Shown here: positions 4,915 through 64,000 of the stretch, piece after piece
Numbering within the stretch: the first letter of the stretch is position 1
Layout: each line of letters opens with the position of its first letter
From: Vulcanimicrobiota bacterium
GTDB taxonomy: Bacteria > Vulcanimicrobiota > Xenobia > Xenobiales > JADMJV01
Direction of reading: 5' to 3'
Assembly (NCBI GenBank): GCA_023447635.1
Contig: JAEXNA010000221.1
Span: forward strand, 4,063 to 68,062
DNA length: 64,000 nt
Notes under the pieces: model-generated
Databases searched by the model: none
Told to the model about the DNA's origin: nothing
Seen by the model: only the letters and a program-made list of their open reading frames with translations
Made by a program: the position numbers and the translations under genes

Positions 4915-4971
4915 AGGCAACCCTTTTAGGCTCGGCCGATCCGCCGTCCTCCTGAAGCCCTTTCTCCACGG

Positions 4972-5469
4972 GTGCCGGTGGGCAAGTCCGTCCTGGCAGG
5001 TGTTCCCCGGGCCAACGCTAAGCCGCCCGCCATGCCTCGCTTTTTCCCAGCGCTGCAGGTCTCGCTCGAGCTGTTTCGCGGGCCCCAGCCCGATTTTGAA
5101 GACATGCTGCACCTGAAATCCCACGGGGTCCGGGCGCTGGTCAACCTTCGCCGCGAAGCCACCGAAAGCGAATTCTTCGCCCGCCAGGCCGGGCTGGAAT
5201 ATCTGCACCTGGCGGTGGAAGACTGGAATATTCCGCAGGAAGGCCAGATCCGCGAATTTTTGCAGTTCCTGAATATTCCGCAGAATCGACCCGCCCTGAT
5301 CCATTGCGCCATGGGCGTAGGCAGAACCGGAACCTTCGTCGCCTGTTACAGAGTGGCCAAAGGTATGACCGCCGACGACGCCATCCGCATGACCAACGAC
5401 GAATCGCCCCTGCGCGGCGTGACCATGAACCGACTCCAGCAGGACTTCGTCCGCAGCTTCCGGCCCTGA
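4972..5469 (+). CDS. protein tyrosine / dual-specificity phosphatase (CX5R)
   Basis: HCAMGVGRTG P-loop (CX5R) signature. GTG start at 4972 per the ORF track; ATG at 5032 (MPRFFPAL) is an alternative start. Confidence 0.7.
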   Translation: MPVGKSVLAGVPRANAKPPAMPRFFPALQVSLELFRGPQPDFEDMLHLKSHGVRALVNLRREATESEFFARQAGLEYLHLAVEDWNIPQEGQIREFLQFLNIPQNRPALIHCAMGVGRTGTFVACYRVAKGMTADDAIRMTNDESPLRGVTMNRLQQDFVRSFRP

Positions 5470-34200: not shown

Positions 34201-35004
34201 ATGGGCCTTGAAGACCGCTTGATACTCCTAAAAGAGCCGAACTCGCCGGTGGCAGAAAGCTACCGCTCGCTTCGTGCCGCCCTGTCGCGCAACCTGACCG
34301 AAGGCAAACGCACCTTCACCGTCGTCAGCTCCTGGGGCGGCGAAGGCAAGTCGATGGTCTCAGCCAACCTGGCCGTGGCGTTTTCCCAGCTTCTGATGGA
34401 CGTCGTGCTGGTCGACGGCGACCTTCGTCGCCCGACCATCAGCCGTGTCTTCGAGTGCGAAGACAAGCCGGGGCTGCTCAACCTTCTGCAAAAGGGTGGT
34501 CTCGCTGGCGAACACGTCCTTCCCACCGGCATCCCCCGCCTCAGCATCCTGCCGGCCGGCTCCTCTATGGAGAACCCCGGCGACTTGCTGGGCAAAGGCG
34601 GCTTCAAACAGCTCCTGGCCGATCTCCGCGGCTCGGCTGACCGCTGTGTGGTGATCGACACCTCTCCGCTGTCCGCCTGCAGCGACGCCTTGCTGATGGC
34701 GCCGCATTCCGATGGGGCCATTATGGTGGTCAACCCGGAAAAGTGGCAGGGCGAAGCCGAAGCGCACTTTGCTCAGGACCTGGAAGACCATGGAGTCGCC
34801 ATATTTGGGGCAGTCCTGAACAACGCCGACGCCAAGGAGCAGACTTCCACCTACGGAAGCGGCTACGGCTACGGCTACGGATACGGATATGGGTACGGAT
34901 ACGGGTCCCCTTCGCGTCCCGGATCGCCCACCGCGGCCGAAGCGACGGTCGAAGCCAAGGGGTCGTCCTGGAGAGACTTCTTCAAACGGGATAAGCAGAA
35001 ATAG
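34201..35004 (+). CDS. BY-kinase (CpsD/CapB-type tyrosine autokinase ATPase) with C-terminal (Y-G)n tyrosine cluster
   Basis: Walker A-like SSWGGEGKSMVSANLA, A' VLVDGDLRRP, Walker B CVVIDTSP; tail YGSGYGYGYGYGYGYGYG. Confidence 0.75.
   Translation: MGLEDRLILLKEPNSPVAESYRSLRAALSRNLTEGKRTFTVVSSWGGEGKSMVSANLAVAFSQLLMDVVLVDGDLRRPTISRVFECEDKPGLLNLLQKGGLAGEHVLPTGIPRLSILPAGSSMENPGDLLGKGGFKQLLADLRGSADRCVVIDTSPLSACSDALLMAPHSDGAIMVVNPEKWQGEAEAHFAQDLEDHGVAIFGAVLNNADAKEQTSTYGSGYGYGYGYGYGYGYGSPSRPGSPTAAEATVEAKGSSWRDFFKRDKQK
34852..34906 (+). repeat. in-frame hexanucleotide (GGCTAC/GGATAC)n microsatellite encoding the (GY)n tail of the BY-kinase
   Basis: tacggaagcggctacggctacggctacggatacggatatgggtacggatacggg. 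Confidence 0.6.
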
Positions 35005-51130: not shown

Positions 51131-52318
51131 CTAAAAGAACCAGCGGGCCAAGCTCAGGAGATTAAATATGCCCATGCCACCCAAGAATCCGTTTTGTTGC
51201 TCTTTGGTCGGAACATACACCAGATCGCCATCGTAAACAGGAACGGCCGCATCAGCTTTACCCTTCTCGAAGTACTCTTTCAGATTGTACTCCTCTACCT
51301 TGTCACGGTTTGCGGTAACATCAGCAGCGCGAACAACGATGACCTTCTCGATCTTCGACCCGGCAGCAATCCTTGGGGGCAAGATATCAATAAGAGTCTC
51401 GTTTCCTCTAAGCGGCACCGGGCCCGGCTGACTTACAGCACCAAGAACGACGGCCTGCCGAGCAGGTACGACCAAGATATCTCCTTCTTTCAGGTTCTGA
51501 GCCTCCTCCGGCAGCGGCTTTGACGGGGTAGCACTGAGGTCCAGAATCAACGGCTCTGGTAGGGTTGCTCGGATCAGCCGGACCCGGGTCAACGAGGCCT
51601 CCTCCTTCGCACCACCGGCCGCCAGCAGCGCCTGGCGTGGGTCGCCATGAACTCTGCTCACAGCATAAACTCCAGGCTTGGTAACTTCGCCAGTGACACT
51701 GACAGGGGAGCCTGGAAGGACGTACAGCACATCGCCAGACTTCACTTCAGTCAGACCGCCACCAGCTGAAGCCTGAAGGGACACTTCCGTGCGCTCACTG
51801 CCACGCAGCAGCATCGCGGTATCCTTATCGGCTTTCTCGGTAAGTCCACCTGCACGAGCAATTACATCTAGCACCGTCGCTCCCAGTCCCACCTCGAAGG
51901 TGCCTTGCTGGTTAGCCTCTCCGAGAACTGCGACCTGGTGTCTCGCGACCTGGCGCAGACCTAACTTGAACTCTGGCTTCTTCAGTTCTTTGGCTAACCG
52001 CTTCTTAAGATCGGCTCGCAAGTCGCCCAGGGTCCGGTTCGAGGCCTTGACCTCGCCGACCAACGGATGGAAGAAAAAGCCATCTACACGCACCGTGTAA
52101 AGACTCTCCATCTCTGGCAAGGACGAAATATGAAATACTATCTCGTCACCAGCTCTGAGAATATGCTCTTCGCTAAGCAGCGGAACCAGAGCGCCACCAC
52201 TACCGGGAGACGCTGGCGGCGCCACCGGGGGCGAGGCTGGGGCCTGATTCTGAGCCATGGCTTGCGCCCCAAGAAGCAGAATCAAGAACGCGTGAAAGAG
52301 AAGCCGTGCGGTAGACAT
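51131..52318 (-). CDS. polysaccharide export protein (Wza/GumB family)
   Basis: Signal peptide, PES-like region (LRAGDEIVFHISSLPEMESLYTVRVDGFFFHPLVGEVKASNRTLGDLRADL) followed by SLBB-like repeats. Confidence 0.7.
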   Translation of the reverse strand: MSTARLLFHAFLILLLGAQAMAQNQAPASPPVAPPASPGSGGALVPLLSEEHILRAGDEIVFHISSLPEMESLYTVRVDGFFFHPLVGEVKASNRTLGDLRADLKKRLAKELKKPEFKLGLRQVARHQVAVLGEANQQGTFEVGLGATVLDVIARAGGLTEKADKDTAMLLRGSERTEVSLQASAGGGLTEVKSGDVLYVLPGSPVSVTGEVTKPGVYAVSRVHGDPRQALLAAGGAKEEASLTRVRLIRATLPEPLILDLSATPSKPLPEEAQNLKEGDILVVPARQAVVLGAVSQPGPVPLRGNETLIDILPPRIAAGSKIEKVIVVRAADVTANRDKVEEYNLKEYFEKGKADAAVPVYDGDLVYVPTKEQQNGFLGGMGIFNLLSLARWFF

Positions 52319-52461
52319 ATCCAGCTAAAATCCCCCGCGATAATGCCAATGTCCTGCAAATCGCGGTGCGGTCCAGGGGCTGCGAAAATAACCATCCTCA
52401 GCCCACCGTCAGATGCGACCAACCAGGAGAGCGCCACGAAGACGCTAACCACCTCGCGACC

Positions 52462-53142
52462 ATGAATCGGAACAAGGTAAGCCCTCTTCTCTCCATCTCT
52501 ACAGCCCTCGCTCTGACCCTGTCGCTGGAGGGCTGCGGCGATTCCTTCCCGGATCAGGTCTCCGGCCAGCCCGCCGGTGCCGTTCAGGCCATCTCCGACC
52601 CCATCGTCGACATCCTTCGCGACGGGGTCGATGAGTCGCTCGAAGGTGCTGCTCCCGCGGTCGCGGCAGAATATCTCCTAACCTTCAGCGAAACGAGCAA
52701 CGCGGCCACGACTCGCTTCACCCGTAAGCCCTCCAGCGAAATTATCGCCATTCTGCAGCCGAACGCTGCCACCCGCACGTCGTTTCGCCTGAACATCCTC
52801 AACAAGAGTCGGGCCGGCGCCGCCGACTTCCCGTTCCTGGACCTGCAGTTCGGACAAGGCAACTCCCAGCCCCTCGCCGTGGGAACGCGGCTGTCGGCGA
52901 ACTCTAACAGCAGCGGACCGCGAGCCCAGCTGGTCTACGGCGAAACGTTCCAGCCGCCCAGACTCAAGCTGTTCGTCTCCCAGTCAGGCCAGATCACAGT
53001 CACAGGACTCACACCCGGCGCGGGCCAGTCCGGGTCGATCCGGCTGCGCTTCGACAACGTGGTGATGACTCCCCGGGCCAGCGGACCCAACACCGCAAGC
53101 GGCAGCTTTACCGTGAACGGCGAGGCCAGCTTCACCTTCTAG
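52462..53142 (+). CDS. hypothetical lipoprotein
   Basis: MNRNKVSPLLSISTALALTLSLEGCG lipobox. Confidence 0.4.
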   Translation: MNRNKVSPLLSISTALALTLSLEGCGDSFPDQVSGQPAGAVQAISDPIVDILRDGVDESLEGAAPAVAAEYLLTFSETSNAATTRFTRKPSSEIIAILQPNAATRTSFRLNILNKSRAGAADFPFLDLQFGQGNSQPLAVGTRLSANSNSSGPRAQLVYGETFQPPRLKLFVSQSGQITVTGLTPGAGQSGSIRLRFDNVVMTPRASGPNTASGSFTVNGEASFTF

Positions 53143-53170
53143 CCATCCGACCCCGTTCTTGCAGAGAAAA

Positions 53171-53207
53171 GTTTCAGCGCGATCACCTGTAACGCTGCCA
53201 GCTTTTC
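53171..53207 (-). CRISPR. isolated degenerate copy of the 37-bp CRISPR-like repeat
   Basis: GTTTCAGCGCGATCACCTGTAACGCTGCCAGCTTTTC vs consensus GTTTCAACGCGATCACCTGCAACATTGCACCCACTCC: first 24 nt nearly identical, then diverges. Confidence 0.3.
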
Positions 53208-53358
53208 AGGCACAACCGCATCCGCAATGTCATTTGACTCCACGACAACCGCCTCAGGCTCCCAGACGGAGCGACACGAAATACTCTACAGAGACAACTA
53301 AATACTCCACAGCCAGCAGGATGGGTACCTCTTTTAGCGACACTCCCAGTAATCTTTT

Positions 53359-54129
53359 GTGGGGGTATGCATGGCATTACGATCTTTTCTTTTGACTTTT
53401 CTCCTGGGTGTGTCCGCGCTGGCGGCGCCTCTTTCCAACGGGAATTTTGAGCAAGGCAACCTGTCTGGCTGGCAATCAGTGGGAAGGACTGTTGTCGCAT
53501 TTTCAACGGCGGTCTCTAATCCGGGTCTATACTCGGCCGTGCTCTCGACGGACGAAACGATGGGTAACGTACAGGGCGTAGACTTCGACGACATCGAGAC
53601 GGCCCTGGGCCTGACGCCAGGAACCGTCCTAAGCCTGGGCGGCTACAATGCGACGTTCGGGTCAGCGATCTACCGGTCGGTGACCGTCTTGGCCGGCGAG
53701 GCCATCACGTTCGATTCTAGATTTGTGTCGGACGAGCCGGATGGCCCTACAACGCCATATAATGACTTCTCCTTCTTCAGCGTTTCCGGAGGCGGGGCCC
53801 CTGCTCATGTGCAGTTCCTCGGTGACGCCCAGGCGGCATCTTCGATCAACGGGCCAGCATTCCACGGATTTGATCGCAGTACCAACTCTGCCAACGCCTC
53901 CTACACCTTCGCCAACAGCGGGACGTACACGATCGGGTTTGGAGTCTCGAACGTAGAGGACAACTCCGTCGGCTCGGCCCTCGTGGTGGACAACATCGCG
54001 CTCAACGTCCAAAACCCGCAATCCGTGCCCGAGATCGACGCGAGCAGCGCGACGCTGCCTCTCGCGCTCATCTGCTTGATGATGCTTGTCGTTTCCGACC
54101 GCAAGCACAGGGCGACTCGTCTGGCCTAG
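53359..54129 (+). CDS. VPEID-CTERM sorting-signal surface protein (paralogue of 2394..3227)
   Basis: Signal peptide (MALRSFLLTFLLGVSALA); N-terminal NGNFEQGNLSGWQ motif shared with 2394..3227; C-terminus SVPEIDASSATLPLALICLMMLVVSDRKHR. Confidence 0.7.
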   Translation: MGVCMALRSFLLTFLLGVSALAAPLSNGNFEQGNLSGWQSVGRTVVAFSTAVSNPGLYSAVLSTDETMGNVQGVDFDDIETALGLTPGTVLSLGGYNATFGSAIYRSVTVLAGEAITFDSRFVSDEPDGPTTPYNDFSFFSVSGGGAPAHVQFLGDAQAASSINGPAFHGFDRSTNSANASYTFANSGTYTIGFGVSNVEDNSVGSALVVDNIALNVQNPQSVPEIDASSATLPLALICLMMLVVSDRKHRATRLA

Positions 54130-54166
54130 AGCCCCGAACCGCTACCAATTTTTTGAGACAGAACGC

Positions 54167-54201
54167 AAATCGACGTGCCCCAAGGCACGTCGATTTCTTT
54201 T
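54167..54201 (+). terminator. rho-independent terminator (13-bp perfect stem, 4-nt loop, T-tract)
   Basis: AAATCGACGTGCC-ccaa-GGCACGTCGATTT-CTTTT, 38 nt after the VPEID-protein stop. Confidence 0.6.
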
Positions 54202-54282
54202 AGGAACCTATCAAGCGCTTCCACCCGAGACCTTCTCGAGCACCAGAGAGTCGGCCCTGGCCTCGGCTCCGAGGTGCACAGC

Positions 54283-54774
54283 CTACCAGCTTCCGTAGCC
54301 TTCCTGATAGCCGTCGAGCTCGAAGTTGCTATTCTGATAGCCGCCGAAGCCGTCTCCGCCAAAGAACACCTGGCTCGCTCCCCAGTTGGCGTTCCGCCCC
54401 TGCGACACATTCACGAAGGGGTCGAAGCTCGGCGCGAACGTGGCCGGCCCCATCGAGCGTCCCAGCTGGGAAAGCCTTGAGATGTCCGAATCCATCGGAA
54501 ACGCCGGCCCGAAGGCGTCGGCTCCAGCCTGCATCAGTCGCATCTGCGCCGTCAGCTGCTCGAACTGCTGCTGCTGCACCGCCAACATGGTGCACATCTG
54601 ACCCGTGCGCATCTGCTCTTGCTGCGCCGTCAGCCGCTCCATGGTCTGGCGCTGAATGGCCATCTGCAGACGGAAATCCTGAACGGTGGGGGCGGTGGTG
54701 GTCTTCATATCTGTGAACTCTCCTCGTGCGATTTCCCCCATTCTACTCGCCTCCGCGACCACAATCAGTGACAC
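54283..54774 (-). CDS. hypothetical Gln-rich protein (start possibly at MKTTT, ~54708)
   Basis: ORF only; Gln/Met-rich helical region, Gly/aromatic-rich C-terminus; no known motif. Confidence 0.3.
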   Translation of the reverse strand: MSLIVVAEASRMGEIARGEFTDMKTTTAPTVQDFRLQMAIQRQTMERLTAQQEQMRTGQMCTMLAVQQQQFEQLTAQMRLMQAGADAFGPAFPMDSDISRLSQLGRSMGPATFAPSFDPFVNVSQGRNANWGASQVFFGGDGFGGYQNSNFELDGYQEGYGSW

Positions 54775-54819
54775 CTGGCACCGAATCAGGAGACCCTCGT
54801 CACCCGCGCCAACACCAAA

Positions 54820-54980
54820 GTTTCAACGCGATCACCTGCAACATTACACCCATTCCCGCCGCAACGCCTCGCCGGGCCAATGTTTCAACGCGATCACCTG
54901 CAACATTGCACCCACTCCCGCCGCAACGCCTCGCCGAGCCAATGTTTCAACGCGATCACCTGCAACATTGCACCCACTCC
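54820..54980 (-). CRISPR. CRISPR-like mini-array A: 3 x 37-bp repeats with two 25-nt near-identical pseudo-spacers
   Basis: Repeats at 54820-54856, 54882-54918, 54944-54980. Spacers cgccgcaacgcctcgccgGgccaat / ...cgAgccaat differ by 1 nt. On the minus strand the repeat reads GGAGTGGGTGCAATGTTGCAGGTGATCGCGTTGAAAC (ends GTTGAAAC like type I-C/I-G repeats). Confidence 0.55.
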
Positions 54981-55048
54981 AACCGCAGCCCCGCCGGCCG
55001 TCCCTCAACCGGCAACTAGGCCGGGCTCGCCTCGCCCTCCGATAACAG

Positions 55049-55965
55049 ATGGTCTATAATGACGGCATGTCCTCGCACGGTCTTCTCAACGACGTTCTAT
55101 TCAAGATCGTCTTCGGTGGTCGCCAGAGCGAGCCCGTGCTCACGGCGCTCCTCAACGCTCTGCTCGGCTACACGGGCGACGAAAGCATCGTCTCGCTGAC
55201 TATCGCCAACCCCAATCTCGAACGCGAGCACCTAACGGATAAAGGAGCCGTGCTTGACCTTAAGGCGGTCGACGCCGCGGGACGGTGTTCAACATCGAGG
55301 TCCAGCTCGAGCCCGGCGGTCCCCTCGACTATCACCCCAAGCGAACGATCTTCTACACCGCTAAACTGCTCTCCGCACAGATGGAACAAGGTGTCAGCTA
55401 TGCGAATCTGGCCAAGACTGTGCACATCTCGCTGCTCGACTTTCTCCTGTTCAAAGATTCCGAAAAGCTACACAGCGTCTTCGCACTTCGCGAGGCCGAA
55501 CTCGGGTTTCTTCTTTCGGACGTGCTCGAGCTGCACTACATCGAGCTGCCAAAATTCTCTCTGACGAAGCCCCAGGAGCTTCACACCCCATTCGAGCGGT
55601 GGCTTCACATCCTCCGATTCTCCGTTCTCTATCTCGCCCCCGACTCCGACCCCCTGCCCGCTACACTCCAACAGGAAGAAGGTATCTCCATGGCCATAGA
55701 ATCTCTACGGAAAGCTTACGCCCGCGACGATGTCCGCGAGCTGATCGAAGCCCGCGAAAAAGCTCGAATGGATTACGGCAGTGCCATCGCTGAAGCGACC
55801 AGACAGGGCCGCCAAGAGGGCCGTCAAGAGGGACGTCAAGAGGGACGCCAAGAAGGCCACGTCGATGTGGCCCGCAAGATGCTGGCGCTGGGCCTTGACC
55901 GCGCAACCATCCTCCAAACCACCGGGCTAACCGAAGCCCAGCTGGCCGAACTCGCCAAAGGGTAA
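55049..55965 (+). pseudogene. Rpn/YhgA-like PD-(D/E)XK nuclease ('transposase_31' family), disrupted by a -1 frameshift near 55280
   Basis: Frame 1 HGLLNDVLFKIVFG...LDLKAVDAAGR | frame 2 VFNIEVQLEPGGPLDYHPKRTIFYTAKLL...HYIELPKF...QGRQEGRQEGRQEGRQEG...ILQTTGLTEAQLAELAKG. The two halves together form a complete family member; the junction falls in the conserved D..G..NIE(M/V)Q motif. Confidence 0.7.
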
Positions 55966-56149
55966 CTCCCGACGACCGCCCTCTAAAAGGGAAGCCTCGA
56001 GCGGCACAAAGCTTGCTCGAGGCTTCCAGGAGTGGTAGCCAGAGGCGCACCTCTTCAACGGGGCCACATGCTCGCAGAGCACGGGAACGTGGGCGACGAA
56101 CACCCGGGTGGACACCAGGCCACAACCCGATTTTCTCTCCTATCCCTCT

Positions 56150-57934
56150 TCACGCCTGCGCCCCCGTCGCCGCCCTCGGCAGCGGAAACAGCATCGCCGC
56201 CGCCAGCCGACGCGGCTCTAACCCGTCCAGCCCGTCGGCCTCGAGCTTGTCTCCGCGCCCAGCCAAATCGGCCTCGACCAGCTTCAAAGCGAGCTCCCCC
56301 TCGCCGCGACAGAGCGCCTCGACCACCGGCAACGGGGCCGGTCGCCGGTCTCGGCGCCTGTTTCCAAAGGCCGCCTTCAGCTTACGATAGCTCGCCGGCA
56401 AGAAGGCAAACTGGGGCGGAGGCGGCGCTGGCGACGCCGCCTGGTCGACAACCAGACACAGGGCGTGCAGCAGATCCTCCATCCGCCCTTCGTCCACCTC
56501 GCCCCGCAGAAAGGCCAGCAGATGCTCGGGCTTAGCTGTGTGACAGCCCCAGAACGGGTCGTTGAAAAGCACGATCCCCGCCCGGTTCGGTCGGCGGGGC
56601 ACCTTCCCGCTGCTCCACATCCGATAGCGCAACAGCCGCACCATCTTTTCGCACAGGTCGCGCCCCTGAAAACTCTCCATCTGCGGCCTCAGCCACAGCG
56701 CTCTGTGCAGCCGCGTTCCTAGCGAGGCCAGCGAGAGCGCCAGGTCGAATTCGGCGTTCCCGTCCCGCGGCTCGACCCCCCAGCGAGAACTCAACCCCGG
56801 AGCCTCCGTCGCATGAAGCCTGAGCTTCCCGATCTCTTCCAGCACTCGGCTGCCCGAAGGCCCAGACCCCCAGGACTCTGCTGTCCGTAGCCAGCGAAAA
56901 AACTCCACCCGCTCATCCTCTAGCCAGCCTCCCAGCCGCCCCAGGTCGAACTGCGACTCGGCGGTCACCGAAGCGAGCGCCAGCGTCAGGTCGCCGTGCC
57001 TCACGGCCAGGGCAAAACGTTGATGACCCGCCCCCTGTCCAGCTTCCGCGAACGTCTTGGGCTCACTCCACAGCGGAACCACCACGTCGTACTTCGCCTC
57101 TCCGGGCAGCAGAGCGTTCCGATGCCCTTCCAGGCTAGAACGAACCCGAGGCAGGCCCGACACCAAACCCTCCATGGCCAGCACTAGACCCCAGGGGTTA
57201 GAACGCGCCATCACCTTCCCGTCGTCAGCCCCGGCATAAGAGCTCGCCGCTCGAGGATCGAAAAAGCCTTGCACAGCGTCTCTCATCTGGTCCGTCTCTT
57301 CCTCGAAAAGGGCGGCTCTCAGCAGCTCGGCGGCCCGTCTTTCTGGACGTCGCTCGGCCAGCAGCAGCCATCGCAGCGACTCCATGAAGATGGAGGAAAA
57401 CTCCATTTTCCCGTCCATCCCGCCGGCCAGCGCCAGAGGAGAGAACAGGACCTCGCCATCCATCTCGTCGGCCACGGTGGCCAGCCACGGGTCGTGGGGC
57501 CATTGCTCCAGCAGGCGCCGGACCAGGTCTCTCTTCTCCCACCCCTCCGGCTTCTCGTCCACCACCGCCTGGGCCAGGGCGAACCGCTGCCGGTAGGGCT
57601 CGAAACGCAGCTCTTCACTCGCCTCGATAGCGTAACGAGGATGCTCCACCAGCCGCCGCTGAAACCCGCTGGTCTTGTTCCACGGACTGACGATCGGCGT
57701 CGGCACATACTCCTCGACCAGAAAGCGCACCAACGCCTGTTGGTCCAGCGTCGAGCTCAACCAGAAATGCCTGTTCCGCCACCAGCCCCGCGCCTCCGGG
57801 TCTCGCTGCTCCGCCACCAGCCGCAACAGCCCCAGCCCGCCCAGAGCACAGGCATAAGGCTCGACCCGCAGCCCGACCAGCGCTATTTTAGCCGGCTCAG
57901 AGAGCACCAATCCCCCCTCGCCAGCCGCGCCCAC
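56150..57934 (-). CDS. csx17: type I-G (I-U) CRISPR-associated large subunit Csx17/Cas8u-like
   Basis: N-terminal ...LGGLGLLRLVAEQRDPEARGWW...VEEYVPTPIVSPWNKTSGF recalled as Csx17 N-terminal signature; ~590 aa; flanked by repeats. Confidence 0.55.
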   Translation of the reverse strand: MGAAGEGGLVLSEPAKIALVGLRVEPYACALGGLGLLRLVAEQRDPEARGWWRNRHFWLSSTLDQQALVRFLVEEYVPTPIVSPWNKTSGFQRRLVEHPRYAIEASEELRFEPYRQRFALAQAVVDEKPEGWEKRDLVRRLLEQWPHDPWLATVADEMDGEVLFSPLALAGGMDGKMEFSSIFMESLRWLLLAERRPERRAAELLRAALFEEETDQMRDAVQGFFDPRAASSYAGADDGKVMARSNPWGLVLAMEGLVSGLPRVRSSLEGHRNALLPGEAKYDVVVPLWSEPKTFAEAGQGAGHQRFALAVRHGDLTLALASVTAESQFDLGRLGGWLEDERVEFFRWLRTAESWGSGPSGSRVLEEIGKLRLHATEAPGLSSRWGVEPRDGNAEFDLALSLASLGTRLHRALWLRPQMESFQGRDLCEKMVRLLRYRMWSSGKVPRRPNRAGIVLFNDPFWGCHTAKPEHLLAFLRGEVDEGRMEDLLHALCLVVDQAASPAPPPPQFAFLPASYRKLKAAFGNRRRDRRPAPLPVVEALCRGEGELALKLVEADLAGRGDKLEADGLDGLEPRRLAAAMLFPLPRAATGAQA

Positions 57935-57940
57935 ACCAAA

Positions 57941-58039
57941 GTTTCAACGCGATCACCTGCAACGTTGCACCCACTCCAGCTGCAACACCCACCCAACCCA
58001 AAGTTTCAACGGGATCACCTGCAACGTTACACCCATTCC
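57941..58039 (-). CRISPR. CRISPR-like mini-array B: 2 x 37-bp repeats with one 25-nt pseudo-spacer
   Basis: Repeats 57941-57977 and 58003-58039 (variants ...CAACGTTGCACCCACTCC / ...CAACGGGATC...); spacer agctgcaacacccacccaacccaaa resembles the repeat core (CTGCAAC...ACCCAC). Confidence 0.5.
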
Positions 58040-58099
58040 GGCTGCAACACCCACTTCCGGTAGCTCCCGCAGCGAGCGCAAGACCTTCCCGGCCGGACA

Positions 58100-58966
58100 T
58101 TATACGGTGCCTAGCCGTGGCAATAGAGAGGTGAAAAAACCTGGCGACCACATCGCCGTCGCATCCAGGTCTTTTAAGAACGGCACCACGTCCTCCCGAG
58201 CCGCGTCGACATTGAGACTTTCGAACCGCTCTGCCAGAGCTGCCTTCAGGTCGTTCTCGGACATCGTCTCTTTACTGGTCCACCAACCCGATTGCCTTAA
58301 TCGCATCTCGAGGTGAGACAGATGACACGGGACACCTCGACCCACGTACCAGACGAAATCGAAGTAATCTCTCCCTTTCACTCGTGTCTTCCAGCCTCGA
58401 TGAAGAATGGCGTGCAGTTTCCCGGCAAAAAGGTCGGGCAGTCGATAGGTCAGCACGCCGAAGGGAAGTGGCTGCAGCAGAGTTTTGACCTCTGTCTCAA
58501 AGCCTGGCGGTGGGTCCGAGTCGACCTCGACCTTGACGGTCATTACGCGGGTCCGTGGAACTCGCCTGGCGATCTCGGGAGGAATGGCGATTTTGACGAG
58601 ATGTGTCAAAGTGCCCGCTTTGATAAAGGCGGACTCGATCGGTGTCGCAACCTTCTTGGACTTCATCTCGACAGAAACCTCGAAGCCGAAGGAGCTAAGC
58701 TCCTCGGCAATAGCCTTGAGATAGGCCGCTAATTTGAAATCCTGATCGGCTTGAAGCAATGAGAAGTCGAGATCCTCAGAGAAGCGCTGAAGACCGTAAA
58801 GGATGCGAAGAGCGCTTCCGCCGTAGAAAGCGGCGTGCTCGAAGAACTTCGCTCGCCAGAGAGCCAGCAAGGCCATCTCCTGGATAATCTCCTTAAGCGC
58901 ATTTTCGTGGTCCTGAGCCGTGCGGCAGTTATAGGTCGACAGCATCTGCAGTATCGCGGGGTTCAT
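58100..58966 (-). CDS. abiEii: AbiEii/AbiGii-family nucleotidyltransferase toxin (type IV TA)
   Basis: ALKEIIQEMALLALWRAKFFEHAAFYGGSALRILYGLQRFSEDLDFSL: canonical DUF1814/AbiEii N-terminus. Confidence 0.8.
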   Translation of the reverse strand: MNPAILQMLSTYNCRTAQDHENALKEIIQEMALLALWRAKFFEHAAFYGGSALRILYGLQRFSEDLDFSLLQADQDFKLAAYLKAIAEELSSFGFEVSVEMKSKKVATPIESAFIKAGTLTHLVKIAIPPEIARRVPRTRVMTVKVEVDSDPPPGFETEVKTLLQPLPFGVLTYRLPDLFAGKLHAILHRGWKTRVKGRDYFDFVWYVGRGVPCHLSHLEMRLRQSGWWTSKETMSENDLKAALAERFESLNVDAAREDVVPFLKDLDATAMWSPGFFTSLLPRLGTV

Positions 58967-59595
58967 AGCGCCAACCTCAAGACATCCAATCGAGCGTCCT
59001 TATAAGCCGCCACAAGCTTTGATAACATCTTCTTGCTGAGACCTTTCCATTGCTCTGGCTCCATCCTCAGGTCGTCAGATAGGAACTGGTGCACCGAGCG
59101 TCGGTCCGTCAGCGTGATCGCGGGACGAAGGACAATGTAGTCGCACAAAGCTTTCTCGGGCGTGGCCATTAGCACAGGATGACGTGGGTCGAGCATCACC
59201 CTGTCGACTCCGTGGGGATATCGGGTGGGGGACAGGTAACGGTAGCGAAAACGGCCCACCGGGGTCGAAAAAAGCTTGTTCCTCTTCGGCGTAACGCTCG
59301 TCAACTCTACCACGCGCTCCGGAATGAGGCCGTAATAGCTCAAGGCGTATTCCAGAGACAAGCAGGATGGACCATAGATCAGGTTGGCTAGCACCTCCAG
59401 GCAAACCGGCTCTCGGTTTAGCATAGGCGGGAAGACGTACAGGCCTTTCTTGACCCGGGTGATCGTACCAGCCTTGATAAGCTCGTGAATCTTCTGTCGA
59501 GGCGCCTTGTGCCTCGATAAAGCGTGCCGCAGAGTCAAGTAGTCGAACTCCTCGCTCGGTATAGCTTGGCGTAAAGTCAATGCATCCGTTATCAC
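58963..59595 (-). CDS. abiEi: AbiEi-family antitoxin / transcriptional regulator
   Basis: 210 aa, N-terminal wHTH-like (LIKAGTITRVKKGLYVF); 4-nt overlap with abiEii, the typical operon arrangement. Confidence 0.7.
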   Translation of the reverse strand: MITDALTLRQAIPSEEFDYLTLRHALSRHKAPRQKIHELIKAGTITRVKKGLYVFPPMLNREPVCLEVLANLIYGPSCLSLEYALSYYGLIPERVVELTSVTPKRNKLFSTPVGRFRYRYLSPTRYPHGVDRVMLDPRHPVLMATPEKALCDYIVLRPAITLTDRRSVHQFLSDDLRMEPEQWKGLSKKMLSKLVAAYKDARLDVLRLAL

Positions 59596-59627
59596 ACTCT
59601 TATTCTAAGGGAAAACGAAAACCTGGA

Positions 59628-59658
59628 CCAGTATGTAAGATTTTTTCTAACATACTGG
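59628..59658 (-). promoter_or_regulatory. inverted repeat in abiEi upstream region (candidate AbiEi autoregulatory operator)
   Basis: CCAGTATGT-aagattttttcta-ACATACTGG, 33-63 nt upstream of the abiEi start. Confidence 0.3.
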
Positions 59659-59700
59659 TCACTCCCACCCCGACTGCACCACGAACCGACTCAGCCCAAA

Positions 59701-59737
59701 GTTTCAACGCGATCATCTGCAACATTGCACCCACTCC
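59701..59737 (-). CRISPR. single 37-bp CRISPR-like repeat C between abiE module and csb2
   Basis: GTTTCAACGCGATCATCTGCAACATTGCACCCACTCC (1 mismatch to consensus). Confidence 0.5.
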
Positions 59738-59745
59738 CCCCACAA

Positions 59746-61002
59746 CTAGCCCGGCTCCGGCACGAACCGGCCCATCCCAAAGTGACAGCTCGCCCCCAAA
59801 CACAGCGGACCCGAAATCTCATAAGGGAAACTCAGCCGAAGCCAGCTCGCCAGCCCTGGCGGCGCCTCCCCCTGCCCTCTCCGCACCTGGAACTTCCGCC
59901 CCTCGACCAACTCCACCTCAGGCTCCGGCAGCCCCCGCAGCAAGCACTCCCGGCGCACCTGGTCCTCCACCCCGTCCTTCCCCCGCCGGGGATGGCGCGA
60001 GCACAGAAACGGCGTCAGCGAGCGCCACACCCTTCCCCGCCCCAGCCCGCCGGGCGAGCTATCCGCGGGCTTCAGCTCCGTCCCGCCCACCCAACGCAAG
60101 GTCGACAGCAGCGCCAGGTCCGAAGGGCAGAACCCCTCCTCCGCCCACAGCAACAGCCGCGAAGGCCTGGACCGAGAGGCACAGCCGTCGGGCAGCACGT
60201 GCAGATGTCGATGCCCGTCCGCCCGCGCCTCCCCCTCCACCTTCCCCAGCAGTGTCGCCGAGACATCGCCCAACCCCAGCACCGCCCGCCGCACCTCGTG
60301 CGCCAGCGTCAAAGCCTCTTCCCAGCGCGGAACCTTCCCGCCCAGCCGATAGACCAAAAGCCTCGTACGCACGGGCTTCACCATCGTCACCGGCTCCGCC
60401 AACCAGCGATAGATCACCCAGCGCGAACCCGGAGGGCGATTGCGGCGCTCCTTGCGCATCTGCCCCGTCCCCAGCATCAACTGCTCGACCGTCACCGAAG
60501 GCAGCGGGCAGAACACGGCCGCGACCTCATCGCACTCCTCCCCTGCCGCCAGCGGACGCGCCTGCACTGAAAACTCTCCCGGCACCCGCCGCACCCGGGC
60601 CAGCGACTCTGACCGGCCAAAGTACGCCAGCCCCTCTAGCAGGCCGTCCAGCAAGCGCACCTCCTCCGAGCCCAGCTCGAGCTCCGGCCACAGGAACACT
60701 AGCGGCTCGTCCACCGCCACGAAGCTGTCCAGCCCCAGCTTCAGCTCATCCTCCACGGGCAGATAGCGACGCAGATGCCCCACCGTCGAAGGCGGCAGAT
60801 GAAAACAGGGCAGACTCTCGGCCAAGCGCAGGACCAGCTCCTCGAACCCGGCCGGCTCCCCTTGCAGCATCCAACTCGCGCACAGCGCCCGCAGCAGACG
60901 CCAGGGCGAAGGCGGCCACTCGACCTGACCCTCGTTGACGTGCCGACCCCAGGGCGTCGCGTGGTAGCGCCCCAGGGGGAGCCTAACCTCGATGGCCAGC
61001 AT
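59746..61002 (-). CDS. csb2: type I-G (I-U) Cas5/Cas6 fusion protein Csb2-like
   Basis: N-terminus MLAIEVRLPLGRYHATPWGRHVNEGQVEWPPSPWRLLRAL matches the recalled Csb2 signature (GRYHATPWG...EWPPSPWRL). Confidence 0.6.
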   Translation of the reverse strand: MLAIEVRLPLGRYHATPWGRHVNEGQVEWPPSPWRLLRALCASWMLQGEPAGFEELVLRLAESLPCFHLPPSTVGHLRRYLPVEDELKLGLDSFVAVDEPLVFLWPELELGSEEVRLLDGLLEGLAYFGRSESLARVRRVPGEFSVQARPLAAGEECDEVAAVFCPLPSVTVEQLMLGTGQMRKERRNRPPGSRWVIYRWLAEPVTMVKPVRTRLLVYRLGGKVPRWEEALTLAHEVRRAVLGLGDVSATLLGKVEGEARADGHRHLHVLPDGCASRSRPSRLLLWAEEGFCPSDLALLSTLRWVGGTELKPADSSPGGLGRGRVWRSLTPFLCSRHPRRGKDGVEDQVRRECLLRGLPEPEVELVEGRKFQVRRGQGEAPPGLASWLRLSFPYEISGPLCLGASCHFGMGRFVPEPG

Positions 61003-61004
61003 AG

Positions 61005-61883
61005 CTACATCTTCAGCACGGTGCGCTCGCCCAGTTCGCCCGTCTCTCGAAGGTGGCGAATGCTCCCACGCAGGCGCTCTTCGAGGGCCGGAAGGTCAGG
61101 CAAAGGTTCACTGGTCCCCACCACCTTCAGGTCGCAACCCGCGCGCAGGTGCAGCCCATCGCGTAGAAACCGCAGGACCTTCAGCACGGCCAGGTCGGTC
61201 AGCATCTGCTGGGCGGGGTTGGAGAAACCGTAGCGGCGCAGCCGATACAGGTCCAGATGAAAGTAGGCTGTGATCTGGTTGGAGACATACTCGCGCCGCC
61301 CATACAGGATCGCCCCTTTCCCCTCCTCGGCAGAGCCGCTCTCGTCGAGCGGGTCGAAACGAACGCCCTTGCTATCCACCGCGCTCACGTCGCGAGCGTC
61401 GATCGACGCCGTCAGCAGTCGGGGCAGCCCCGGAGCCGCCCGAAACGACGGCATAAACACCCCGTGCAGCACGCTGTTCGGATCAAGCCTCAACAGCGCG
61501 CCGGCCAGAGCGTTCCGCGCCTTCTGCCCCTTGAGCTTCCCGACCGCCTTCTCGAACGTCTTCACCAGCAGAGGGTACAGATAGGGACTCCCCGCCCGGG
61601 CCGGCTGGGTCACCGAGTCGACCAGCCCGTGCTCGGGATGCTCCAGAGCCAGGAACGGCAACTCCTCCAGCGGAGGCAGATAGCGATCGGCCGCCTCGTC
61701 CCACACCACCGCCTCCAACCGATTGGCCATCGAAGGCACGCTGTCGACGATCAGATTCGTCCGCCCCTCGGGGGAGAAATACTCCGCCGGCCCAACGTCA
61801 GCAAACCTCGCCGGCGCGAAGCGATCGCCCAACAAAGGCTGCAGAGCCACCTCCAACATCCAACGCGCAGGTCCAGCATCCAT
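61005..61883 (-). CDS. csb1: type I-G (I-U) Cas7-like Csb1
   Basis: N-terminus ...LQPLLGDRFAPARFADVGPAEY matches the recalled Csb1 pattern (L.PL.GDRFQPTGF.DLGPA.Y); directly upstream of csb2 with 4-nt overlap. Confidence 0.55.
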   Translation of the reverse strand: MDAGPARWMLEVALQPLLGDRFAPARFADVGPAEYFSPEGRTNLIVDSVPSMANRLEAVVWDEAADRYLPPLEELPFLALEHPEHGLVDSVTQPARAGSPYLYPLLVKTFEKAVGKLKGQKARNALAGALLRLDPNSVLHGVFMPSFRAAPGLPRLLTASIDARDVSAVDSKGVRFDPLDESGSAEEGKGAILYGRREYVSNQITAYFHLDLYRLRRYGFSNPAQQMLTDLAVLKVLRFLRDGLHLRAGCDLKVVGTSEPLPDLPALEERLRGSIRHLRETGELGERTVLKM

Positions 61884-61928
61884 CCCCGACCGTTCGCCCC
61901 CGACTCCTCGCGACCCCGCCGGGGAAGT

Positions 61929-63986
61929 CTAAGGAATCACCGCGTAAGCGGAAGCAGCCTCCTGCGTAGCGAGTTCCTCGACGAAGGTCAGCCTTCCTGA
62001 AGTCTCGCGCCGGTAGATTTTGATGCCCCTTCCTGCCCCATCCTGTCTCGTCGCGTAGTAGAACCGACCCGACGACTCGAGAACCCCCTCTTCGCCCGTA
62101 GTGCCCGTGAGTTCGTTATCGATCTGGGTCCCGCTGGTGCCGTCCGAGCTCAACTCGACGGCGAAGACACGAGCGAGACCGACGGTGTAGAGATATCGGA
62201 AGTCCGGACTGAAGTCTAACCTCTGCTGGTAGAATGAGGATATCGCCGCGCTGCCGTAGGGCGTCAGTTGCCCACCCGGGCCGATCGCCCACCATCGAAT
62301 CATCCTGTCGTCCGAAGCAATGGCGAAAAGCTGATCCAGTTTGGGATGAGCGCGTGGCGCCATAGCGCCGTTCAGGGTTATGCCACTCTCGTCACTGACT
62401 CGGCTCAATCGCCCCTCAGAATCGATAGCTAGAGTATGAAGCTTACTGTTCGTTCGGTCGGTGACAAACAAGAACCGGCCATCTCTAGAAACATCCAGGT
62501 CTCTCGGCCGTCCTCCCACATTGATAGGCCCCCTGCTTGGGTTGTTCGCGGTCAGACGACCGTTGGCTCCGATAATAAACGATCCTATTGTCGCGGTCTG
62601 GCTGTTGGCGACGAACAGATAGCGGCCCGTCGGGTCGATCGTCAGATGGTCGGGTAAGGTGTCAGATCTTATGCCTTGTTGCAGGTTGAGTGTTCCTCCC
62701 GGTTCGATCCGAAAAGTCACGATCCGATGAAGTATGGGGTCAGGAACGTAGATGTAACGCCCTGAGGGATGAACCGCGAGATCGTGGGGCGAATCTGCCG
62801 ACGCGTGCGACGTCAACAGAGTGAGTCGCCCGGTCCCATCATAGCTGTAAACCGTCAGGTCGCCACTTTGTCCTGACTGTGCCGGAGTCCGCGTGTCGCC
62901 AGCGAACAAGTAGGCGCCAGCGTAGAGAGTGGTCGAAGTGTTCATGGCGCCCAGCGCTGCCGAGACGGTAATCCTGCTGTTGTAGCCCGTTGGAGTATCC
63001 GTCGCCAGCCTCGCTACGCCGGGATCCTCTGCAAACCCGACCTTGGCGCTCGACGAACTCCAGCTCACCCTGTCAGTAAGGTCTACCTCCGAACCGTCGG
63101 TCTGGATCCCCATCGCCGTGTACTGTCGGAACGAGCCAGGCGCGGACATCGCATCCTGGGGCAGAATCTTCAGGCTCACCAGCCTCGCCGGCTCGACCAC
63201 TACAGCGACTTCTTGCGAGAACCCGCCGTAGGAAACCGTCACCGTGGCGTTCCCCTCGGCCACTCCCGTCAACACGCCACGAACACTTCCCGTAGTCGAA
63301 ACCGTAAGCACGCTGGTGTCTGACGAAAGGTAAGACGCCTCGTTGGTCACCTCCAGAATCGTGTCCGGCCCGTGCAGAGCGTAGACGGTAAGCTGCCCCG
63401 AGACACCCTTGGGAAACGACAACGTCACATCCGACGAAGGGGACAGCTCCAGCCCGGTCTGCGGCTCGATTCCCACCTCGACAGGCAGCACAACCATCCG
63501 TCCCTGGAACGTCCCCTGCACCGAAGTCGACCCCTCGGCCACACCCGTCACCTTGCCCAAAGCGTCGATCTCGGCGATCTCCGAATCCAGCGAAGTCCAG
63601 GTCACGTCGGATGTCACGTTATAGAAACTTCCATCGCTGTAAGCCGCCGTGGCAACCAGAGTCTGGCTGGTCCCCTTTGGCAGTTCCAGCTGCACCATAC
63701 CCACGGTCAGCCCGGTCACCGTCGCGTCCCCCACCCCAACCTCCACCGTGGTCTCCTGCCCTCCGAAGCTCACGGTGATCGTGGTGTTACCCGCCGCGAG
63801 GGCCCGAATCTGCCCACGCTCTCCCAGGGTGGTGACAGTGGCGACCGAGGGGGCGCTGGACTCGTAGAGCGCCTGGTCGGTCACCTCAAGCTCGGAATCA
63901 TCGCTATAGGTGGCCGTCACGACCAGGGAACGCCTCAGCCCTGGCAGCAGCCGCAGCTCGGTGACATCCACCGAGAGCTCCGTCAC
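61929..63986 (-). CDS. large secreted protein: N-terminal Big_2-like Ig domains plus C-terminal lactonase-type 7-bladed beta-propeller; may extend beyond window end
   Basis: Repeated ...SSDTSVLTVSTTGSVRGVLTGVAEGNATVTVSYGG... Ig-like units; C-terminal ...HDLAVHPSGRYIYVPD...IDPTGRYLFVANSQTATIGSF... (3-carboxymuconate cyclase / 6-phosphogluconolactonase-like). Confidence 0.45.
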   Translation of the reverse strand: MTELSVDVTELRLLPGLRRSLVVTATYSDDSELEVTDQALYESSAPSVATVTTLGERGQIRALAAGNTTITVSFGGQETTVEVGVGDATVTGLTVGMVQLELPKGTSQTLVATAAYSDGSFYNVTSDVTWTSLDSEIAEIDALGKVTGVAEGSTSVQGTFQGRMVVLPVEVGIEPQTGLELSPSSDVTLSFPKGVSGQLTVYALHGPDTILEVTNEASYLSSDTSVLTVSTTGSVRGVLTGVAEGNATVTVSYGGFSQEVAVVVEPARLVSLKILPQDAMSAPGSFRQYTAMGIQTDGSEVDLTDRVSWSSSSAKVGFAEDPGVARLATDTPTGYNSRITVSAALGAMNTSTTLYAGAYLFAGDTRTPAQSGQSGDLTVYSYDGTGRLTLLTSHASADSPHDLAVHPSGRYIYVPDPILHRIVTFRIEPGGTLNLQQGIRSDTLPDHLTIDPTGRYLFVANSQTATIGSFIIGANGRLTANNPSRGPINVGGRPRDLDVSRDGRFLFVTDRTNSKLHTLAIDSEGRLSRVSDESGITLNGAMAPRAHPKLDQLFAIASDDRMIRWWAIGPGGQLTPYGSAAISSFYQQRLDFSPDFRYLYTVGLARVFAVELSSDGTSGTQIDNELTGTTGEEGVLESSGRFYYATRQDGAGRGIKIYRRETSGRLTFVEELATQEAASAYAVIP

Positions 63987-64000
63987 AACCGCGTCGACGA

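Follow-up and report, generated by a model that had tools for sequence, protein, structure and literature searches.

The stretch of DNA analysed here, a window of 64,000 nucleotides (nt) from a Vulcanimicrobiota bacterium (contig JAEXNA010000221.1), carries between positions 53171 and 61883 the effector genes csb1, csb2 and csx17 of a type I-G CRISPR system, interleaved with copies of a 37-nt CRISPR-like repeat and with cassettes of other genes. Read along the minus strand, the order is csb1, csb2, the single repeat R7, abiEi, abiEii, the repeat pair R6-R5, csx17, an Rpn-family nuclease gene on the plus strand, the repeats R4-R2, a glutamine-rich open reading frame (ORF), a gene for a VPEID-like protein on the plus strand and the degenerate repeat R1 (Table 1). 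The readable stretch amounts to 67.8 kb, i.e., the window together with sequence beyond its end (metagenome contig k141_5220, ENA ERZ27269162, 77,289 bp). Comparison with related loci strongly supports placing this effector in a recurring I-G clade that lacks both Cas3 and the adaptation genes.

The ORFs of the window were searched with profiles from Pfam, NCBIfam/TIGRFAM and PADLOC. The identities that an earlier note, written from the sequence alone, had proposed for the three cas genes are borne out by matches to PF09617, TIGR02165, TIGR04113 and PADLOC models, and so are those of abiEi/abiEii and of a split Rpn gene (PADLOC, PF08843 and PF12784), while of the VPEID protein that it had named only a weak tail match is left, with TIGR04161 staying below its cut-off at E 6e-4. 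The three cas genes are intact and under purifying selection, the ratio of non-synonymous to synonymous divergence (dN/dS) against the relative described below being 0.17 for csb1, 0.28 for csb2 and 0.40 for csx17. Csx17 has N- and C-terminal motifs in common with canonical proteins, and the histidine of the C-terminal CHFGxG motif of Csb2 (H407) is invariant in 14/14 aligned short and canonical Csb2 proteins, a set that does not include the Csb2 of Thioalkalivibrio sulfidiphilus. In the latter protein, the C-terminal catalytic histidine is H503 (PMC9638904), and judged by its position H407 is probably the equivalent residue.

The 37-mer GTTTCAACGCGATCACCTGCAACATTGCACCCACTCC (plus strand) matches at 54820, 54882, 54944, 57941 and 59701 with 0-2 mismatches, compared to no match in shuffled sequence, and a degenerate 23-nt core adds the copies at 53171 and 58003 and no further one in the 64 kb, which gives seven copies in the window, spanning 53171-59737. 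An eighth copy, R8, is identical at 36/37 positions and lies approximately 1.9 kb past the window end, flanked by an insertion sequence (IS)-type DDE transposase gene and a response-regulator gene. Of the 67.8 kb scanned, 12.8 kb around the cas genes contain all eight copies and the other 55 kb contain none, and every copy runs in the same direction as the cas genes. The repeat blocks separate the response regulator, a Big_2 protein, csb1 and csb2 from AbiE, AbiE from csx17 and the Rpn gene, and these in turn from the glutamine-rich ORF and the VPEID-like protein. Both multi-copy blocks have a period of 62 nt according to Tandem Repeats Finder, at 54815-54987 (2.8 copies, 94%) and at 57936-58054 (1.9 copies, 92%). 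The arrays are thus non-canonical, as the earlier note had stated, with a 62-nt period and near-identical 25-nt intervals, and comparison of the two intervals of array A confirmed its count of one differing base. Its 37-bp unit is present at the sites that it listed, but the conserved unit is longer: in an alignment (A3) of eight repeats from the window contig and four from the relative, 12/12 copies have in common approximately 10 nt on the upstream side (GTTGYRGSN) and 5 nt on the downstream side (WTTGG). The CCAAA that was said to precede each repeat on the plus strand is found at some copies, whereas the 5' neighbour of the others is CCAAT or GAAAA.

Table 1. Features of the locus in the order in which they are met along the minus strand (positions refer to the window).
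Feature	Position	Strand	Remarks
csb1/cas7g, 292 aa	61005..61883	-	PF09617 E 3e-25; TIGR02570 E 6e-18; PADLOC Cas7g E 2e-28
csb2/cas5-cas6 fusion (Cas5-6g), 418 aa, short-clade form	59746..61002	-	TIGR02165 E 1e-42; PADLOC Cas56g PDLC01778 E 2e-97
csb2 tail: final 36 nt of the coding sequence (HFGMGRFVPEPG plus stop), then the 8 nt before R7	59738..59781	-	apparent source of the "spacer" sequences
R7, single repeat	59701..59737	-	9 nt 3' of the csb2 stop codon; position of the solitary repeat in L026, L028, L031 and L032
Hairpin, 11-bp perfect stem, then T-rich run	59625..59662	-	approximately 40 nt after R7, upstream of abiEi
abiEi antitoxin (cargo)	58963..59595	-	PADLOC AbiEi E 5e-63; NF047376 E 2e-12
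abiEii toxin (cargo)	58100..58966	-	PF08843 E 3e-30; PADLOC AbiEii E 5e-105
Array B: R6 (58003-58039), 25-nt interval, R5 (57941-57977)	57941..58039	-	ends approximately 30 nt upstream of the csx17 start
csx17/cas8g, approximately 586 aa, short form	56150..57910 (ORF open to 57934)	-	TIGR04113 E 5e-67; PADLOC Cas8g E 1e-67
Rpn-family PD-(D/E)XK nuclease gene	55049..55965	+	PF12784; one apparent frameshift near 55285
Array A leader	54981..55075	-	includes CATTATAG/TATAAT box
Array A: R4, R3, R2 and two 25-nt intervals	54820..54980	-	intervals differ at one base
Gln-rich ORF, 142 aa from ATG / 163 aa from upstream GTG	54283..54711	-	downstream of array A
Secreted protein, weak VPEID-CTERM-like tail	53359..54129	+	TIGR04161 E 6e-4, below cut-off; Pfam VPEID-CTERM marked weak
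R1, degenerate copy	53171..53207	-	27/37 identical; 3' 23 nt 21/23; island edge

The earlier note had described an array with 25-nt pseudo-spacers, a description that does not hold: these "spacers" are paralogous copies of one sequence, by all appearance a duplicated csb2-tail junction, that are largely conserved between genomes. In the 12 copies from the two genomes approximately 52 of each 62 nt are conserved, and variation is confined to approximately 10 positions of each 25-nt "spacer". After R7, the 44 nt that separate this repeat from the csb2 HFG codons occur again, forming an 81-nt direct repeat; the 23 nt that follow R7 are 87% identical to the csb2 tail, a match that is not significant alone, and in the relative a 59-nt copy of the csb2 tail stands after the cargo with 91.5% identity (E 2e-17). 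By inspection, the 25-nt intervals correspond to the 44-nt csb2-tail segment minus approximately 19 nt. Moreover, the interval of array B and the relative's pre-csx17 interval are identical at 21/25 positions, the 5' untranslated region (UTR) of csx17, formed by the 26 nt that follow R5, agrees at 23/26 positions with the 26 nt that follow R2, and homology is seen between the array A leader and that of the relative's csx17-proximal array (local score 55 versus a shuffle maximum of 25). As intervals and flanks are duplicated from the csb2 tail and the csx17 5' UTR, the arrays grew by duplication and recombination and not by Cas1-Cas2 integration.

The relative is represented by two overlapping contigs of one sample (L029 and L022, 29-nt overlap), and its proteins are identical to those of the window by 93% (Csb1), 87% (Csb2) and 58% (Csx17). 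It has four repeat copies in 7.3 kb around its cas genes, and the layout is kept, with two repeats immediately in front of csx17 and repeats directly behind csb2. Between csb2 and csx17, the two related genomes have different defence cassettes in one slot: in the window it contains R7, AbiEi/AbiEii, R6 and R5, in the relative two repeats 25 nt apart, PDC-M02A/B (PADLOC E 2e-76 and 1e-143), a csb2-tail fragment, a leader and again two repeats 25 nt apart. The earlier suggestion that the repeats bracket mobile cassettes is therefore supported, both by PDC-M02 standing in the place of AbiE and by the duplicated junction sequence. Synonymous divergence (dS) from the relative is 0.24-0.29 for csb1 and csb2 and 0.90 for csx17. 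Furthermore, csx17 is a mosaic (window 56150-57910 versus L022:2185-3957), with a dS of 0.37 in the first 120 codons, the sole part that is similar to csb1 and csb2 in this respect, and of 0.75-1.6 elsewhere, which suggests a recombination breakpoint inside the gene and a history of its own for csx17.

The absence of cas3, cas1, cas2 and cas4, already reported in the earlier note, holds over the whole 67.8-kb stretch, in which tblastn with the Cas3, Cas4-Cas1 and Cas2 proteins of the canonical I-G control locus L023 gives no match, and no helicase or HD domain is present in the scanned ORFs or in the contig gene table. This absence is shared by relatives. The best Csb2 matches are proteins of 415-461 aa with 41-87% identity, which rank before nearly all canonical-length ones (approximately 470-550 aa), and the four short-clade comparison loci L026, L028, L031 and L032 all have csx17, csb1 and csb2 without cas3 or cas1/2/4 within approximately 3-10 kb on each side (4/4). 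In contrast, L023 reads cas3-csx17-csb1-csb2-cas4/1-cas2 and has 19 repeats with a spacing of 71-77 nt, and against this order that of the window, csb1-csb2-...-csx17, is unusual, as had been claimed. In the close relatives L027 and L030, csb1-csb2-csx17 are contiguous, i.e., in the window gene order minus the insertions, with no repeat between csb2 and csx17. Each of L026, L028, L031 and L032 has one solitary canonical I-G repeat after csb2, composed of CTTCC, a variable stem and then GGCCCCATTGAAG(A/C); a post-csb2 repeat thereby recurs in all the other clade loci in which the stretch downstream of csb2 was inspected. The neighbours of L028, L031 and L032 are of defence type and include an OLD-like ATPase with a UvrD helicase, GmrSD, SNF2 helicases, a STAND NTPase and a HIT-helicase fusion. 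The Csb2 search returned one distant (26%) viral relative, no phage match and one distant plasmid match. In the searchable literature no description was found of a recurring I-G branch that is without Cas3 and adaptation genes yet has constrained effector genes and one repeat.

In these Cas3-less relatives a long stem closes around the solitary repeat and the approximately 40 nt after it (GACGCGGCGGA ... TCCGCCGCGTC; L032:11364-11458, L028:11325-11422, L031:11395-11480 and L026:4305-4415), with fold z-scores of -4.1 in L032, where a U run follows, and -1.8 in L028. The post-csb2 element of the Cas3-less relatives has the look of a structured RNA in the 3' UTR and not of a mini-array with two repeats. 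Directly upstream of csx17, three of the loci encode a protein of approximately 101-110 aa with a C-terminal CxxC...CxxC motif (L028:7208-7513, L031:6941-7273 and L032:6946-7251), which is 59-65% identical among them and marks one sub-branch of the clade; the L028 protein has no NCBIfam or PADLOC match, and tblastn finds no copy in the window contig, the relative, L026, L027 or L030. L031 has a second solitary I-G repeat (3801-3842, …CACCGGCCCCATTGAAGC) in the same orientation approximately 7.6 kb upstream of its post-csb2 repeat, and the pair brackets SMI1_KNR4, Peptidase_C11, the CxxC protein, csx17, csb1 and csb2, an arrangement resembling the R8...R7 bracket of the window.

The repeat itself is unevenly constrained. 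In alignment A3 its 3' 23 nt (GTTGCAGGTGATCGCGTTGAAAC) are nearly invariant, with 8 differences in 276 positions over the 12 copies by hand count, and its 5' 14 nt are approximately five times more variable. The best-conserved part, the 3' ...GATCGCGTTGAAAC, ends like I-G repeats do (...ATTGAAGC/A) and faces the cas direction. Across the 5' edge of the repeat a 6-bp stem is paired in 93% of cells, and all its variation proceeds via G-U pairs that are possible on the cas-sense strand only; the conservation of this stem is suggestive only. Inside the repeat lies a 12-bp palindrome-like core, the near-palindrome TGCAAYGTTGCA. The hairpin that follows R7 has a fold z-score of -3.1, and 0/200 shuffles fold equally well; it is a candidate terminator or AbiEi operator, and a terminator scan of the locus shows no enrichment. 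An Rfam scan of 52000-64000 gives two sub-threshold chance matches only. Scans for the repeat core yield 2 matches in 185,579 species genomes and 17 in 241 million metagenome records, all of them covering the core only (21-25/37) and without cas genes, and they are taken as chance; as an array the core is found neither in these collections nor in viral contigs. An independent assembly of the locus exists in a Logan contig of SRR13366722 (L002, 8005 nt), the ends of which break inside R8 and inside R5/R6, as is expected from short-k assembly at repeats and as strain-level cassette variation would also produce.

Concerning the remaining genes, the PF12784 match of the Rpn gene is distributed over two overlapping ORFs (profile positions 2-66 in one and 69-229 in the other), and its C-terminal part contains a short tandem repeat at 55805-55858 with the 12-nt unit AGGGCCGCCAAG in 4.5 copies. 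The glutamine-rich ORF has no Pfam, NCBIfam or PADLOC match. Upstream of csb1, at a distance of approximately 70 nt, ends the called gene for a Big_2/lactonase beta-propeller protein of 1051 aa (from window 61929-63986 on past the window end; L001:2723-5878), and in the relative some gene stands at the corresponding position (L029:3-1079). Pfam scans of the other large ORFs assign the remaining window to an exosortase/exopolysaccharide cluster, which includes a 650-aa fusion of exosortase (EpsH) and CAAX-protease (Rce1-like) domains (window 3352-5304, minus strand) located 48 kb from the weakly VPEID-CTERM-like protein. The hexamer TACGGA occurs in 8.8 tandem copies at window 34852-34904. A search with a housekeeping gene gives metagenome relatives with at most 73% identity, and the closest named entries, "bacterium" and Armatimonadetes metagenome-assembled genomes, reach approximately 50-58%.

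How can these observations be combined? We propose, with about even confidence, that the locus encodes a binding-only I-G derivative whose repeat modules give constant CRISPR RNA (crRNA)-like RNAs and at the same time the homology for cassette exchange. A derived, interference-deficient effector had been one of the explanations offered in the earlier note, and it receives strong comparative support from the short-Csb2 clade, i.e., from the window, the relative, L026, L028, L031 and L032. The ancestral state would be a single canonical I-G repeat just after csb2, as in the sampled relatives. In the window lineage this repeat would have diverged such that its 3' end stayed ...GTTGAAAC and the classical hairpin was lost, and it would then have been duplicated together with the csb2 tail, first as the 81-nt unit and, after a deletion of approximately 19 nt, as the 62-nt unit. 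The repeats may be transcribed together with the cas genes, and Csb2, which has kept the invariant C-terminal histidine motif, may bind or cut the repeat RNA. The resulting crRNA-like RNAs, with short constant guides, would load a binding-only Cascade-like complex, and by analogy with CreR/CreTA and with cargo-regulating mini-arrays this complex could regulate nearby genes without cutting DNA. The repeated modules would in addition supply the DNA homology for gain and exchange of cassettes.

Several results weigh against this proposal. The 37-mer folds no better than its shuffles, and the canonical geometry of a hairpin, 4 nt and an 8-nt handle is absent, so that recognition by Csb2 stays putative; no compensatory double changes are seen in two candidate stems. 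No target was found for any of the guide-like segments: the only TTN-flanked seed match (≤1 mismatch) in the contig lies in a coding region 50 kb away, matches of at least 10 nt do not occur in promoters of the contig or in intergenic regions of the locus, and in viral contigs neither the repeat core nor, with each sixth base masked, one of the two intervals is matched. A sigma-70-type promoter scan of the locus gives 0 sites. R8 adjoins the transposase gene and is convergent to the response-regulator gene, and hence is not placed 5' of a same-strand gene. In the relative, the loss of 1 nt from a T run (GTTTGG to GTTGG, L029:2940-2970) splits csb2 into parts of 328 aa and 71 aa, and either faulty assembly or a real frameshift or decay may be behind this. 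Finally, the absence of cas3, cas1, cas2 and cas4 covers 67.8 kb, i.e., part of the genome, and cognate genes with a normal array are possible elsewhere. Since no target, no canonical hairpin and no sigma-70 site was found, we infer an RNA function from orientation, conservation and precedent.

Of the alternatives, one that we regard as unlikely takes the repeats as recombination scars left by successive cassette insertions, either homologous or promoted by Rpn or IS elements, that have no RNA or regulatory role, in which case the cas genes may work with an RNA encoded elsewhere or with none. The near invariance of the 3' 23 nt in 12 copies while the 5' part and the flanks drift does not sit well with scars, nor does the retention of the repeat layout in the relative at the dS values given above or the recurrence of a post-csb2 repeat in all other examined clade loci; yet intervals and flanks do consist of duplicated csb2-tail and csx17 5'-UTR sequence, L027 and L030 are free of a repeat between their contiguous csb2 and csx17, the contig offers no guide target, and the Rpn gene and the IS transposase adjoin repeat copies. 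A second alternative, which we regard as quite improbable, considers the approximately 52-nt unit as a DNA-level operator or recombination site, e.g., one where a dimeric regulator or recombinase would bind to TGCAAYGTTGCA, or as an attC-like cassette boundary, unrelated to crRNA. The single orientation, the bracketing of cassettes that differ between relatives, the 12-bp palindrome-like core and the missing canonical hairpin would fit such a site, whereas gene table and domain scans reveal no integron integrase or other site-specific recombinase in the island but only the IS-type DDE transposase and the frameshifted Rpn gene, the unit by inspection misfits attC cores and their imperfect-palindrome architecture, the best-conserved 3' end resembles that of I-G repeats and faces the cas direction, and the stem variation keeps G-U pairs on the cas-sense strand only. 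An integron with attC sites in the strict sense was rejected, as gene table and scans show no integrase, the unit has GTTTCAAC/GTTGAAAC and GTTGCAG in misfit to RYYYAAC/GTTRRRY, and no unit-wide inverted repeat is seen.

Quite unlikely as well is a canonical I-G system in decay or complemented in trans, i.e., a broken remnant, as the earlier note had envisaged with its decaying locus, or an effector that uses cas3, cas1-cas2-cas4 and a normal array elsewhere in the genome. The sequence at hand is part of a genome, the operon is split by insertions, and frameshifts are found in the Rpn gene of the window and in the csb2 of the relative; against this stand three full-length cas genes with dN/dS of 0.17-0.40, four more clade loci without cas3 and adaptation genes within their flanks, the clade's own shortened forms of Csb2 and Csx17, and the failure to find the repeat core as an array in the species genomes, metagenome records and viral contigs scanned. 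Decay in particular is contradicted by the intact genes and by the recurrence of the clade without cas3. The analogy to transposon-recruited (CRISPR-associated transposon-like) systems drawn earlier does not hold either, as no Tn7-type genes are seen in the contig, where the annotated neighbours have no TnsA/B/C or TniQ domains and the sole transposase is of the DDE_Tnp_1/DUF772 IS type. A repetitive extragenic palindrome or miniature inverted-repeat transposable element, which would be usually palindromic and spread over the genome in many copies, was set aside tentatively, on the basis of the 67.8 kb scanned, where 8/8 copies lie in 12.8 kb at the cas genes, and of the relative, where the four copies lie in 7.3 kb.

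A more far-reaching reading, which we think very improbable, would make the short-Csb2 clade an undescribed CRISPR-derived system with a single structured repeat RNA as fixed guide or scaffold, of which the repeat became in this lineage a module for capturing and exchanging defence cassettes, via the effector or via recombination, with the cas genes themselves being cassettes; if true, genes would sit where spacers normally sit. More broadly, the locus shows that ordinary duplication can multiply repeat modules of CRISPR origin, which come to flank exchangeable defence cassettes and even the cas genes, and it would link crRNA-like regulatory elements to the assembly of defence islands. Among the type I subtypes, I-G has been studied least, and nuclease-less derivatives of class 1, e.g., type IV and the I-F3 and I-B systems associated with transposons, repeatedly serve roles other than adaptive immunity, some of them having become tools.

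Compared with known systems, the parts of the locus are type I-G, and it departs from the I-G definition in Cas3, adaptation genes, array and gene order. As in canonical type I-G (formerly I-U; Thioalkalivibrio sulfidiphilus, Geobacter sulfurreducens GSU0051-0058), there are homologous Csb1, Csb2 with the C-terminal histidine motif and Csx17, and a repeat of approximately 36-37 nt that ends ...TTGAA(A/G)C when read in the cas direction. Unlike canonical I-G, the window is without Cas3, Cas4-Cas1 and Cas2, has csb1-csb2-...-csx17 instead of cas3-csx17-csb1-csb2, a Csb2 that is approximately 80 aa and a Csx17 that is approximately 110-130 aa shorter, a repeat without the GC-rich hairpin 4 nt before an 8-nt handle, and near-identical 25-nt intervals with a 62-nt period in place of variable 36-nt spacers. 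Type IV, Tn7-associated I-F3/I-B and Cas3-less I-E variants are nuclease-less class 1 derivatives, and the locus is like them in that the effector is kept, nuclease and adaptation are lost and guides are few or atypical, which implies a binding-only reuse; unlike them, its origin is I-G, no DinG, Tn7 (TnsABC/TniQ) or plasmid hallmarks are seen, and the system is chromosomal beside a polysaccharide cluster, with relatives among defence-type genes. With integron cassette arrays it has in common same-orientation elements of 50-60 nt between small cassettes that include toxin-antitoxin pairs and differ in content between relatives, whereas IntI, R''/R' core sites and the attC imperfect palindrome are absent, cassettes have genes on both strands, and the element, unlike attC, resembles a CRISPR repeat and is linked to cas genes.

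Functionally, the regulatory mini-arrays CreA/CreR come closest to the locus. CreA of CreTA, according to Li et al. in 2021, is reportedly a crRNA-like regulatory RNA. CreA, CreR and mini-arrays accompany complete systems with Cas3, adaptation genes and normal arrays, none of which stands alongside in the window stretch, their spacers are matched by a promoter in the vicinity, adjoining a protospacer-adjacent motif, whereas no such match to the window segments was found in the contig (TTN motif), and the window units, unlike mini-arrays, have multiplied and stand on either side of the cas genes as well. The likeness lies in one, two or three degenerate repeats inside a cas locus with a short conserved interval, and in a function that would need Cascade only and not Cas3. 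For I-U, creA-like elements have been noted (10.1101/2023.03.10.532045), and type I-D loci have regulatory mini-arrays with short spacers at a fixed position and variable toxin-antitoxin or defence cargo inside cas loci (10.1101/2023.03.03.530964). These type I-D cargo loci appear especially close to the window, in which the repeat position is likewise kept while the neighbouring toxin-antitoxin or defence cargo varies between relatives.

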